DNA of 64,000 nt from Dictyostelium discoideum (Eukaryota): the NCBI GenBank assembly GCA_000004695.1, contig CM000150.2, forward strand, positions 192,001 to 256,000, given 5' to 3'. Positions 3,959-40,044 of the stretch are shown piece by piece. The notes beneath the pieces were generated by a model. That model ran no database searches. It was given only the letters and a program-made list of their open reading frames with translations, and was not told the DNA's origin. How positions within the stretch are numbered: position 1 is the stretch's first letter; the number at the start of each line of letters is the position of its first letter. A program made the translations under genes and the position numbers.

Positions 3959-4984
3959 TTATTCATTTCCAATATAATTTTCTATATCCAGCATTATAGA
4001 ATAATCTTTCTTGTTTTGACACTGCATACTATCAGTGAATATTCTAAGTAAAACAATTTTATTTTTATTTTTATTTTTTAAATCTTTAAATTGTTGACCA
4101 CTTTTATAATTTGTATAAATTCCAGTTTCAAAATCTGTATCAAAATCTATTCTTTCAAAAAATTGCTTTTTATTTAATAAAGTTTCTAATACTTTTTTAA
4201 TTTCAAAATAAAAAATTGAGTGATCATAATTTTTATTTATAAATGTTTCTCCTTTTATTTGAAAATCTTCCATAAATAATTTATCCATATATTGAGGTGT
4301 GTATCTTATTTGATTTAAATTGGTTTTATTTTTGTCAATAAAACTTTTAAATTTTTCAAGTAGCTTTAAACTTATTGAGTTTTCAATTCCCAACATTAAA
4401 AATTCAATTTCAGTTTCATTTAATTTTTTTTTTGATTTTTCATTATCTAAATTATTATTTAGATTATTATTTATTGGTTCGTTTTGAGCATTTTCATTTT
4501 CATTATTTTCATTATTTTCATTATTAATGTTTGCTTCATTTTCATCTATTCTAATTTCATTGTTTTCATCTTCACTATGTACCAACCCAATTATATCATG
4601 ATTTTCTTCATTATCAATTGTTTGATTGTTTTCATTATTTTCATTATTTTCTTGATAAAAAATTTCATCTTGGTTTTGGTTACATAAATGTTTACATGGG
4701 TCATCTGGATCATTTGTTGGATATTTTATTTTTTCACCAGTAATATCCATTAATTTTTTATAAAAGCTATCTCTTTTTTGATTATTTGTAATAATTTTAT
4801 TTTGTTCATTTTTACATTTTTTGGTGTTGAAATGTCCATTTACATCATAAAATTGTTTATAAGAACGGTAATATGCAAGACAAAATGGACATATATTTTT
4901 ATGCATAATATAATGAATAATAATATTTTTAAAATTCTTTAATTTTTCTCTGCAATTAATGCATGATATGTTATTTAAATTCAT
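3959..4984 (-). CDS. Hypothetical protein with an N-terminal C2H2-like zinc finger and an acidic N/E-rich low-complexity region
   Basis: 341-aa ORF from a true ATG at 4982-4984. The motif CINCREKLKNFKNIIIHYIMHKNICPFC has C-x2-C...H-x3-H spacing. No introns were needed. Confidence 0.5.
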   Translation of the reverse strand: MNLNNISCINCREKLKNFKNIIIHYIMHKNICPFCLAYYRSYKQFYDVNGHFNTKKCKNEQNKIITNNQKRDSFYKKLMDITGEKIKYPTNDPDDPCKHLCNQNQDEIFYQENNENNENNQTIDNEENHDIIGLVHSEDENNEIRIDENEANINNENNENNENENAQNEPINNNLNNNLDNEKSKKKLNETEIEFLMLGIENSISLKLLEKFKSFIDKNKTNLNQIRYTPQYMDKLFMEDFQIKGETFINKNYDHSIFYFEIKKVLETLLNKKQFFERIDFDTDFETGIYTNYKSGQQFKDLKNKNKNKIVLLRIFTDSMQCQNKKDYSIMLDIENYIGNE

Positions 4985-37144: not shown

Positions 37145-38734
37145 TTAAACATTTCTTGCGGCTTGAATTAATGGTTTAAATTCAGAGGAATCACATGCCA
37201 AATCCATGAAAGGATGTTTTAAAAGATCGGTAGCATCAGGACGATTAGCAACATTGATATCGAGACATTTTGAGAAGAAATCTTGGAAAGTTTTACTCCA
37301 TTTGGTTGTTTCTTTAAGTGGTGGAATACCTTTAGTAGTGATGAGGAAAAGAGCACGCAATGGTGGGAAATCCATATAAGGTGGTTCACCTTCAGCCATT
37401 TCCATCATCATGATACCCAAAGACCAAATATCAACCTTGACACCATAATCGTGACCTCTAATGAGTTCTGGGGCCATCCAATAAGGGGTACCAACGACGG
37501 TATTACGTTTTTGTTGTTTTTGAGTTAATTGAGCGGCATAACCAAAATCAGCAATCTTTACACTACCCTCTGAGCCCAATAAAATATTATCACTCTTTAT
37601 ATCTCTATGAATACGATGAAGACTATGAATGTATTGCAATGCCTTCAAGGTCTCTTTAACCACATAAGCAATTTGAATCTCACTCATTTTGATATTATCA
37701 AATGCCTCTAAAATGTCTGTTAAACAACCACCACCCATAAACTCCATTGCAACCCAAAGTTCTCTATCGTTCACTATATAACTATCAATGTAATTTACAA
37801 TGTTATCATGATGTGATGTCTTCATAATTGCAATCTCTGTTACCAAGAGTTTGGCATTATCATTGTTAATTTCAATCTTTTTAATTGCAACTCTCTTATT
37901 GTTCTTTGATGATGTTGCTACAAATACTTCTCCTGCTGCACCTTCTCCAATCTTTGTCATATTTTTATAAATTTTAGTTGGATCTTCTTTTGTTACTAAA
38001 TCACCTATAGTATTTAAAAAAAAAAAAATAAAAAAAAATAAAAAATAAAGAAATAATAAAAGTGTGGTTAATATTAAAAATAAAATAAAATAAAAAAAAA
38101 ACAAAAATTAAATTATGTATGAAAAATAAAAAAAATATAAAAAAATAATAAACATAAATAAATAAATAAACATACTAAGAGTTAAATTTGATTCATCAGG
38201 AAGTGCAGATAAATTTTGAGAATTTGATTTTTCCATTGTTCTACCAGCTTGAAATTCTAAAACTGATAACCATTCACTTGGTTTATCGAGTACTTCTTGT
38301 TTTGAAACATTTGAAGACTTTAAGATAACTTCCCATTCTTTTGGTAAACCAGAGAAACCAGTTGCTGAATTGAAATCAACATGTACCTCATGTTTAAGAT
38401 TGAATGGTTGTGATACTGTGCTATATTCTGATCCTTTCTCAACTGCTTTCATCCAACTTGCCATTTCATCTGGTGTATTGGCTTGAATGAAAAATGTTTT
38501 ATTGATTCTTGGTGATACTAATTCGAAACAATTTGGTTTACCTAATGATTTATTTTCATAGCAACGTGACATTCTTAATGGCACCGCTCCAACTGGTCTC
38601 TCCTCTTTATCCTTAAAATAAAATAACATATCATTTTGAATAATAAACTTTCTTTTCTTCCAATTCTTTACTACATGTCCTTGTTTCTTTAATTCACCCT
38701 CTTTATCTGGTGATTTCCATAATGTTGGTGATAG
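37145..38734 (-). CDS. pakC: p21-activated protein kinase with PH and CRIB domains (PakC-like). Exons 38176-38734 and 37145-38004 were found; the start-codon exon was not
   Basis: PH domain GELKKQGHVVKNWKKRKFIIQNDMLFYF...ASWMKAVEKG, CRIB VSQPFNLKHEVHVDFNSATGFSGLP, and a PAK catalytic domain (GEGAAGEVFVA, HRDIKSDNILL, DFGYAA, GTPYWMAPE). The intron 38005-38175 (GTATGT...ctatag) is phase 1. The upstream exon is preceded by an in-frame TAG and an acceptor at 38735-38736, so a short 5' exon must exist but could not be placed. Length of about 472 aa matches the reported PakC size. Confidence 0.75.
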
Positions 38735-38797
38735 CTATATTAAAAAAAAAAAAAAAATAAAAAAAAAAAAAAAAACAAAATAATAATAAATTAGTAA

Positions 38798-38828
<31 letters not shown>

Positions 38829-39363
38829 TCTATTCCCATTTTATTTGAAACAAAAAAAAATAAAAAAATAAAAAAAAATAAAAAAATAAAAAAAAAACAA
38901 TGGAAAATAAAAAGATATTTACTTACATCTTATAATGAAATCATTTTTATATTGTTTATATAAAAAAATAAAAAAAAAATTGTTGTGTGGGAAAAAAAAA
39001 AAAGAGAAAAAAAAAAAAAACTAAAAAAAAAAAAAAAAAAATTTTTAAAAAAAAAATAAAAAAATAAATTAAAATATAAAATAAATATAAAAATCGGTTG
39101 GGTTTCATCTAATCTATAATTATCTTAAATTTGGATATTTTATTTTATTTTTTTTGTTTAAAATATTAAAAAAAAAAAAAATTTATATTTTTATATTTTT
39201 TGGTTTAATATATTTGAAGATATTTATTTATATATATATTTTTTTTTTTTTTTTTCCTTTAAACTAAAATAAAAAATTAAAAAAAAAAAAGAATTTACAT
39301 TATTACAACAAAAAAAAATGACAAATTAAATTTACACGCCAATTAAATAATTAGGATTTATAT

Positions 39364-40044
39364 TTAGTTTGATTCTTCGTTGTGATGGCTGAAATAATCG
39401 TTACCACCACCACCTGAAACACTTGAAGATACACCTGGATCTTGAGTTGGGGTGTATGAGGAAACACTTGATTGTGGACCTGATGAGGCACCAGTACGTC
39501 TGAAACCGTCTTGGTTACCACCGGCTGGTGCTTGTTTACCAGAGTCATTTGTTGGGGTATATGTGGAAACACTTGATTGTGGACCTGATGAGGCACCAGT
39601 ACGTCTGAAACCGTCTTGGTTACCACCTGCTGGTGCTTGTTTACCTGAATCGGTGGTTGGGGTATATGTGGAAACACTTGATTGTGGACCAGATGAGGCA
39701 CCTTGACGTCTGAAACCGTCATTGTTACCACCTGCTGGTGCTTGTTTACCTGAATCGGTGGTTGGGGTATATGTGGAAACACTTGATTGTGGACCTGATG
39801 AAGCACCTTGACGTCTGAAACCGTCATTGTTTGTACCTGCTGGTGCCTATTATCGTCAAAAAATAATGACCATTAGCAATTTGTAAAAAAAACAATAATC
39901 AAATATTCAAAATTTAATTATTATATCATTATTTTATGTTTACTATTATTATTTTTTTAAAAAAAAACTTACAGTTTTACCAATATCAACGGTTGGTTTG
40001 TGATTTGAAGTGCTTGAACCTGGACCTGCTAATGTTCTTCTCAT
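39364..40044 (-). CDS. Novel small protein (183 aa) with 35-aa tandem repeats: exons 39973-40044 and 39364-39846
   Basis: Exon 1 MRRTLAGPGSSTSNHKPTVDIGKT ends at a GTAAGT donor, and the intron 39847-39972 ends in ...gataatag. Exon 2 is about four repeats of APAGGNNDGFRRQGASSGPQSSVSTYTPTTDSGKQ and ends GVSSSVSGGGGNDYFSHHNEESN with a TAA stop. It uses C-ending codons (ACC, GGT, CGT, GAC, TTC, TCC) that are unusual for this genome. It is not in the ORF track because the frame starts at a splice acceptor. Confidence 0.55.
39447..39846. repeat. Tandem array of a 105-bp unit (about 3.8 copies, over 95% identical) forming the coding repeats of the gene above
   Basis: The anchor ggggtatatgtggaaacacttgattgtggacc recurs at 39554, 39659 and 39764, which is exactly 105 bp apart. 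G+C is near 50%, against about 22% locally. Confidence 0.9.

Follow-up and report, generated by a model that had tools for sequence, protein, structure and literature searches.

Tandem arrays of in-frame units are well known from coding minisatellites such as those of polyubiquitin, mucin and involucrin, in which units are homogenised within a species and copy number is polymorphic by whole units; unequal crossing-over together with gene conversion is the standard explanation of such homogenisation. A tandem period of about 35 residues is also found in nebulin and LASP repeats, and LIM domains, like villin headpieces, are typical of proteins that associate with F-actin. Small disordered proteins of other kinds include the hydrophilins and LEA proteins, for which the usual hydrophilin criteria are a glycine content above 6% and high hydrophilicity, and the microtubule-associated JPT1/HN1/Jupiter and plant SPIRAL1 families, which carry (P)PGGxSS and GGGSSLDYLF motifs.

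Here we describe a repeat gene in a 64-kb stretch of Dictyostelium discoideum DNA (hereafter the window), located on chromosome 1 immediately upstream of pakC (DDB_G0267450). The gene resembles coding minisatellites in its in-frame units, within-species homogenisation and whole-unit copy-number polymorphism, and differs from the polyubiquitin, mucin and involucrin arrays in being short (four units), in encoding a small cytosolic-type product that lacks a signal peptide, and in the purifying selection on each unit. It is a concertedly evolving coding tandem repeat for a protein predicted to be disordered, and this kind of gene is well known. The explanation that we consider likely as a whole combines a real two-exon gene, a homogenised array, a product that would serve as a multivalent disordered ligand or scaffold, and a possible partner in the actin cytoskeleton.

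Gene Structure and Annotation Status

Direct reading of the sequence gives a gene of two exons on the minus strand (39364-40044), with a spliced coding sequence of 555 nt that encodes 184 aa (Table 1). The ATG lies at 40044 in the context aaaagaaaATG, the GT-AG splice sites are canonical (donor GTAAGT from 39972; intron 3' end ...gacgataatag), and the frame is uninterrupted from ATG to stop, with the same structure present in five other assemblies. Exon 1 encodes an N-terminal half-repeat, RR..GPxSS....DxGK, which appears at the protein N-terminus as the half-unit MRRTLAGPGSS...DIGK, while exon 2 comprises four 35-aa units and a 20-aa tail, SSVSGGGGNDYFSHHNEESN, the 3' end of unit 4 diverging into the tail (..YTPTQDPGVS). 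One peptide expected from the 184-aa product is QGASSGPQSSVSTYTPTTDSGK. The initial annotation had proposed this two-exon model, and its strand, splice sites, stop and repeat layout match base for base and coincide with the gene model of annotated GenBank assemblies; the second exon, proposed as about four 35-aa repeats with a unique tail and a TAA stop, reads in the same way. The gene is a clean positive control, in that splice-aware reading of raw Dictyostelium DNA recovers a gene missed by an ORF scan.

Table 1. Features of the repeat gene, its overlapping frames and its neighbor in the window, with intron positions in related species.
Feature	Position	Strand	Description
Exon 1	39973..40044	-	72 nt, 24 codons, encodes MRRTLAGPGSSTSNHKPTVDIGKT
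Intron	39847..39972	-	126 nt, GTAAGT...AATAG, 14% G+C, phase 0
Exon 2	39364..39846	-	483 nt including TAA stop at 39366-39364
Repeat unit 1	39742..39846	-	APAGTNNDGFRRQGASSGPQSSVSTYTPTTDSGKQ
Repeat unit 2	39637..39741	-	100/105 (95%) identity with unit 1
Repeat unit 3	39532..39636	-	94/105 (90%) identity with unit 2
Repeat unit 4	39427..39531	-	91/105 (87%) identity with unit 3
Probable 3' UTR	39280..39363	-	aatcctaattatttaattggcgtgtaaatttaatttgtcattttt..., nearly unchanged across D. discoideum strains and D. citrinum
Spurious overlapping 158-aa ORF	39351..39827	-	+1 frame of the repeats, open across the whole array
Spurious antisense 84-aa ORF	39452..39706	+	Open only through the repeat
pakC	37145..38944	-	Directly downstream of the repeat gene
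Intron position, D. discoideum	after codon 24
Intron position, D. purpureum	inside codon 9
Intron positions, C. fasciculata	after codon 18; second inside APSG
Introns, environmental species			three, phase-1

The gene had been presented as previously unrecognisable, which does not hold, since assemblies of D. discoideum, D. citrinum and D. purpureum already carry its annotation; public annotation lists it as a hypothetical protein, and it is not a discovery. The gene occupies this position upstream of pakC, with precisely this structure, in five annotated GenBank assemblies. In GCA_054883475.1 (L007) the DNA is identical and the gene spans 681 nt with a product of 184 aa, and two further D. discoideum assemblies (L008 and L009) also encode 184 aa, their introns being 136 and 132 nt long; the further D. 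discoideum accessions with the 184-aa gene are GCA_054859355.1 and GCA_054859385.1. Exon 1 is identical in L007 and near-identical in L008, L009 and the two D. citrinum assemblies (L005 and L006). The D. discoideum hypothetical proteins are the same in exon-intron model, product length, half-repeat, units and tail. Homologs are also annotated in Cavenderia fasciculata and Planoprotostelium fungivorum. Our homology searches, whose collection included the AX4 proteome, did not return the D. discoideum, D. citrinum or D. purpureum orthologues; because these orthologues are on record, their absence is a property of the search and not a sign of missing annotation. Literature searches by locus tag, neighboring DDB_G numbers and descriptive terms found nothing on the gene or its family.

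Base Composition and Codon Usage

The locus is rich in G+C: the array has 48.9%, exon 2 has 47.4% and the coding sequence 46.3%, against a window average of 24.4% and flanks of 11-13%. A local G+C of about 50%, as first estimated, is adjusted to these values for the array and coding sequence. The GC3 of the gene is 0.22, within the range of the other ORFs in the window (0.09-0.26), so the G+C excess comes from codon positions 1 and 2, reflecting Gly, Ser, Thr, Pro and Ala codons. Certain codons are nevertheless favored: TTC in 5 of 5 cases, GAC in 5 of 10, AAC in 7 of 11, ACC in 9 of 20 and GGT in 30 of 30, where the respective background fractions are 0.32, 0.10, 0.16, 0.21 and 0.70, these counts being inflated by four near-identical, and therefore non-independent, units. 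The codon usage proposed as atypical is accordingly so for GGT and certain C-ending codons, while third-position composition is ordinary. TTC, GAC, AAC, ACC and GGT are reportedly the codons favored in highly expressed Dictyostelium genes (Sharp & Devine 1989). Because the preference seen here matches that of highly expressed genes, the repeat gene is probably well expressed.

A Protein Family Across Amoebozoa

Homologs of the encoded protein are found well beyond Dictyostelium, many transcript contigs included. C. fasciculata DFA_10653 matches at E=8e-33, and a profile search returned 45 matches, among them PROFUN_13268 of Planoprotostelium fungivorum, a transcript of Physarum polycephalum and several TRINITY ORFs that are complete. 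When 1.84 billion representatives were scanned exhaustively with HMMER, 143 proteins emerged, almost all of them small. DFA_10653, PROFUN_13268 and Physarum transcript 12078 belong to the same family as the D. discoideum repeat protein, and differ from it in detail: C. fasciculata has three RR-units and other homologs four to five, compared with four in D. discoideum; the unit of D. purpureum is 34 aa long rather than 35; intron positions vary; and some homologs have a C-terminal zinc ribbon.

From 93 family proteins we collected 136 full-length units (126 distinct), which give the consensus APAGxxxxG[YF]RRxGxAxGPxSSxxxYxxTxDxGK. Among the 126 distinct units, conservation is complete at G18 and P19, 99% at D31 and G33, and 84-93% at R11, A16, S21, S22, Y26 and T29. 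Conservation extends outside the units, with the N-terminus MR[RP]xxAGPxSS common to Cavenderia, Physarum, Planoprotostelium and the transcript-derived homologs, the tail motif DPGVSSSVSGGGGNDYFSHHN kept in C. fasciculata and D. purpureum, and the tail ...DPGVSSSVSGGGGNDYFSHH conserved within Dictyostelia.

As judged from these sequence comparisons, the family is Amoebozoa-wide and uncharacterised, and it has no Pfam family; its annotated orthologues and homologs are listed as hypothetical proteins, none with a described function. The 184-aa product has no Pfam match above the curated cut-off, the only hit at E<=10 being Thiopep_pre (E=0.2), and an NCBIfam match to myxococcal PilA (28.6 bits vs. 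a cut-off of 400) was set aside as compositional noise. A profile search of the PDB gave no matches at E<=10, and P0128 and P0159, two larger proteins that contain the repeat, yielded no useful PDB match. The interest of the family is that it is Amoebozoa-wide and probably well expressed, and combines textbook concerted evolution and copy-number polymorphism with the lack of a Pfam family or structure.

Concerted Evolution of the Repeat Array

Tandem Repeats Finder (TRF) places the array at 39446-39846, with a period of 105, 3.8 copies, 93% matches, no indels and a score of 641. The repeats had been described as more than 95% identical in DNA, a figure that applies to units 1 and 2 only; it overstates the similarity of the later pairs (Table 1) and of units 1 and 4 (83/105), the DNA identity of unit 4 to units 1-2 being 79-82%.

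Internal units of one array are alike in DNA, with an identity of 0.905 for D. discoideum, 0.949 for D. citrinum and 0.931 for D. purpureum (TRF: period 102, 4.4 copies, 91% matches), compared with 0.735 between D. discoideum and D. purpureum units. All units of an array share species-specific residues, as in SVSEYNPT.DIGK for D. purpureum and SVSTYTPT.DSGK for D. discoideum. The D. citrinum arrays comprise four units in L006 (184 aa) and three in L005 (149 aa), a difference of exactly one 35-aa unit, and units 2 and 3 of L006 differ at 2 of 105 sites. These comparisons agree with the recent expansion or concerted evolution that the near-identity of the repeats had initially suggested. When D. 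discoideum strains are compared with one another, most units can still be matched by position; relative to the divergence of the strains, homogenisation is therefore slow. The sequence data collectively indicate that the array undergoes slow concerted evolution, in which unequal crossing-over and gene conversion among the 105-bp units would produce both the homogeneity of the array and its changes in copy number.

Predicted Disorder and Putative Function

The 184-aa protein has a mass of 18.4 kDa, a pI of 9.4 and a GRAVY of -1.10, and among its 184 residues are 33 Ser, 30 Gly (16.3%), 20 Thr, 15 Pro and 13 Ala. An AlphaFold2 model built from a 15-sequence alignment has a mean pLDDT of 42.7 and a pTM of 0.20, with no helices or strands, and the protein is thus predicted to be disordered along its length. 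A Ser/Thr/Gly-rich and probably disordered product had been foreseen, and both the composition and the model are in keeping with it.

Each unit would carry two short conserved linear motifs, [YF]RRxGxAxGPxSS and YxxTxDxGK. Position-specific conservation over long evolutionary distances argues that these are short linear binding motifs presented repeatedly, rather than a product of bulk physicochemistry. The protein might then act as a multivalent disordered ligand or scaffold, with a valency equal to the number of units, and its binding partner may lie in the actin cytoskeleton; we hold both steps with low certainty. An actin partner is suggested because one protein joins the repeat to a CRP-type LIM domain and another joins it to a villin headpiece. 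In the former (P0067, encoded by an intronless 902-nt contig), a LIM domain (Pfam E=4e-14) precedes three units and a zinc ribbon; in the latter (P0139), which scores weakly against the family profile at 41.8 bits, two units precede the villin headpiece (E=7.5e-16). These fusions weakly suggest a link to the actin cytoskeleton, the weakness lying in the fact that only two fusion proteins point to actin; the C-terminal CxxC...CxxC zinc ribbon in which several family members end is commoner than the actin-type fusions and says nothing about actin. The repeat resembles no characterised repeat that binds actin or microtubules. Like nebulin and LASP repeats, the units of the family recur with a period of about 35 residues, and P0067, like LASP and nebulette, has an N-terminal LIM domain followed by repeats. 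The likeness is one of architecture only: unlike nebulin, the family units lack the SDxxYK motif and a Pfam Nebulin match, and they are predicted to be disordered with no helical propensity. The nebulin repeat (PF00880) was accordingly rejected as a candidate, with no Pfam match at E<=10 and SDxxYK missing from the unit consensus. A more specific proposal, that the 35-aa unit is an undescribed Amoebozoa-specific disordered module that binds the actin cytoskeleton and the 184-aa protein a free-standing four- to five-valent form whose valency would be tuned by unequal recombination, seems to us rather unlikely; if true, it would represent a new class of cytoskeletal repeat in an organism studied intensively as a model of cell motility.

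In a protein of low complexity, conserved short motifs could instead reflect other roles, such as modification sites or stress protection. The main rival to the scaffold reading is that the protein is an abundant hydrophilin- or LEA-like protectant shielding macromolecules in starvation, encystment, or spore or sclerotium dormancy and is not a specific binding scaffold, which we consider improbable without discounting it. Like such proteins, the repeat protein is glycine-rich, very hydrophilic, predicted to be fully disordered and tandemly repeated, its glycine content and GRAVY both falling within the compositional limits for hydrophilins, and its codon preference suggests abundance. In addition, the family is restricted to Amoebozoa, and to our knowledge Amoebozoa all form dormant stages. 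Unlike LEA proteins and dehydrins, however, the protein matches no LEA or dehydrin Pfam family, and the G-P, D-x-G-K, Y and R positions conserved across very distant amoebae look more like specific contacts within binding motifs. Moreover, fusions to LIM, villin-headpiece and zinc-ribbon domains are unexpected for a protectant.

There is a slimmer chance that the units are arrays of basophilic-kinase sites (RRxGASS), perhaps for PakC, which would make the protein a phospho-regulated substrate or decoy. The R-R pair is frequent (R11 in 93% and R12 in 53% of units), Ser and Thr lie nearby in the D. discoideum units, and the gene remains beside the pakC orthologue or close to it in D. discoideum, D. 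citrinum, D. purpureum, an environmental contig and C. fasciculata. However, adjacency of eukaryotic genes is weak functional evidence, and the orientation of the repeat gene relative to pakC flips between species. The sites themselves fit poorly: Gly occupies the second position after R-R in 60% of units, the Ser/Thr of GASS is variable (position 15 is T in 30%, A in 16% and N in 12%; position 17 is A in 42% and S in 30%), and the conserved S21 and S22 lie 9-10 residues after the arginines, at odds with R-R-x-S/T and R-x-R-x-x-S/T. The RRQGASS motifs initially read as basophilic-kinase-like sites are thus not conserved among the 126 distinct family units.

Kinship with JPT1/HN1/Jupiter or SPIRAL1 as a distant member is barely credible. 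The repeat protein is likewise small, disordered by prediction and Ser/Gly-rich, with G-G/P-x-S-S-like motifs near both ends, and the motifs bear a superficial resemblance (RRTLAGPGSS vs. RVLRPPGGGS; the tail GGGGNDYFSHH / GAGGSSADYFSH vs. PGGGSSLDYLFGG), but homology is not detectable: there is no JUPITER or other Pfam match, none of the 143 profile matches resembles these families, and hhalign of the family profile against hand-entered target sequences gives probabilities of 0.06% for human JPT1 and 0.5% for Arabidopsis SPR1. We rejected this kinship on the Pfam and hhalign results.

Purifying Selection on the Reading Frame

Whichever function the scaffold and protectant readings assign to it, four independent lines (annotation, pattern of variation, selection and conservation across distant species) show that the repeat gene is a genuine protein-coding gene with a reading frame under purifying selection. 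Between strains and species, the dN/dS of the whole coding sequence is 0.14-0.21 (dS 0.11-0.30), and among units 1-3 it is 0.25-0.38. The same intron occurs in other strains and species at 136, 132, 112 or 110 nt, with GTATGT donors and flanking exons in frame; the length differences of the intron (110-136 nt) are not multiples of 3, whereas the exons vary by substitutions or one 105-nt unit only. Although intron positions differ by lineage (Table 1), the peptide is conserved through every junction. The profile search also shows that orthologous transcripts with complete ORFs exist; the spliced exon-exon junction itself had no matches in JGI metagenome contigs. From the annotation, the conservation and the orthologous transcripts, we infer that the gene is expressed and spliced in D. 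discoideum.

A non-coding minisatellite whose open frames are a by-product of repetition can practically be set aside. Repetition propagates an open frame automatically, and three frames out of six stay open along the array or a stretch of it, yet the low dN/dS applies to the proposed frame, the peptide is conserved in species whose DNA has diverged far and whose introns lie elsewhere, and the non-repeated N-terminus and tail are conserved as well. The orthologous transcripts carry complete ORFs and the gene is annotated in several assemblies. A minisatellite present at many loci had been named as an outcome that would overturn the gene, and a BLAST search with unit 1 found matches only at 39433-39846 within the 64-kb window, where the unit is thus single-copy. 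On our reading of the sequences, cross-species conservation has already refuted the minisatellite.

Nor is there any real prospect that the true product is one of the other open frames. Two had been noted; the minus-strand frame is indeed open across the whole array (158 aa), but the plus-strand frame is open for 84 aa only and has two stops across the array. Both are ATG- or GTG-initiated and require no splicing. Against them, neither product is in the protein collection by exact look-up (which likewise did not return the spliced 184-aa product), all homologs found use the APAG...GPQSS...DSGKQ frame, and annotated gene models use the spliced frame; for the 158-aa ORF in particular, the cross-species peptide conservation and a dN/dS below 1 belong to the spliced frame instead.

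Other Features of the Window

A second D. discoideum assembly matches the window over 12 kb at 99.5% identity. Elsewhere in the window, multi-copy AX4 proteins match the ORF at 1516-2850 exactly, and AX4 DDB_G0268476, on the 4.92-Mb chromosome, does the same for the ORF at 3959-4984; DDB_G numbers are not positional.

Conservation of the repeat gene and its neighborhood

The two-exon repeat gene, which encodes tandem 35-aa units, lies near an orthologue of pakC across long evolutionary distances, with flips in orientation (37145-40044 in the window; loci L002, L005-L009, L012, and L013). In D. discoideum and D. citrinum the repeat gene is upstream of pakC in tandem orientation, while in D. purpureum and an environmental contig (44% G+C) the two genes are arranged head-to-head. 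In C. fasciculata, the repeat gene is approximately 10.7 kb from the pakC orthologue, and two genes intervene.

The peptide is conserved, and the intron positions differ in every lineage examined (L001, 5880-6410; L003, 447-1230; D. purpureum L013, 4336-5108; window, 39847-39972). This combination points to introns having been gained, lost or slid repeatedly in the repeat gene. In C. fasciculata, a splice acceptor directly precedes the conserved (M)RRTLAGP start (ttattag, then TG AGA AGA), and the 63-aa N-terminal extension annotated in the homolog DFA_10653 is supported by no homolog. At the D. purpureum locus the called product is 184 aa, but when the sequence is read with one GT-AG intron the protein is 217 aa long and its repeat period is 102 bp (34 aa); about one repeat is probably missing from the public model for this species.

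Between the window strain and two assemblies labelled D. discoideum (L008 and L009; GCA_054859355.1 and GCA_054859385.1), dS in the repeat gene is 0.11-0.12, a high value for strains of one species; the strains so labelled may be quite divergent lineages.

Zinc ribbons and fusions in the repeat family

A subset of the proteins carrying the repeat-family motif (P0008, P0012, P0022, P0103, P0105, and P0067, the last of which joins a LIM domain to three units) ends in a CxxC-x(9-10)-CxxC zinc ribbon, with weak matches of the C-terminal ribbons to Pfam Zn_Ribbon_1 and DZR; the Dictyostelium family proteins are without this ribbon. In P0128 and P0159, the motif is internal and follows a GGGGG run, within larger proteins of unknown fold. 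In one further sequence, P0003, the reading frame of a family member runs on into a C-terminus resembling that of Hsp70 (...GGMPGGMP...VDDID), a junction that is probably a chimeric transcript assembly and not a real fusion.

The start of pakC and multi-copy reading frames

The minus-strand sequence at the pakC start in the window reads ATG ATT TCA TTA TAA GAT gtaagt, placing an in-frame stop at codon 5. This codon is GAA (Glu) in all six other assemblies examined (three of D. discoideum, two of D. citrinum, and that of D. purpureum), including a D. discoideum assembly that is 99.5% identical to the window. The AX4 RefSeq PakC has 477 aa (MISLDLS...), without the codon 5 residue, and PakC in the other assemblies and in the original cDNA entry has 478 aa (MISLEDLS...). 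The TAA is either a reference base error or an AX4-lineage nonsense change papered over in annotation.

Features located in the window
Feature	Positions	Strand	Remark
Multi-copy 444-aa protein, DDB_G0277285 / DDB_G0293690	1516-2850	+	exact copy
DDB_G0268476, C2H2-domain protein	3959-4984	-	
In-frame stop TAA, pakC codon 5	38930-38932	-	pakC ATG at 38944-38942

The 444-aa protein near the window start appears as TRE5-A ORF1 in a published table, TRE5-A being a tRNA-gene-targeting retrotransposon. Across the whole 64-kb window, ARAGORN found no tRNA genes. The C2H2-domain reading frame is likewise a member of a multi-copy cluster.
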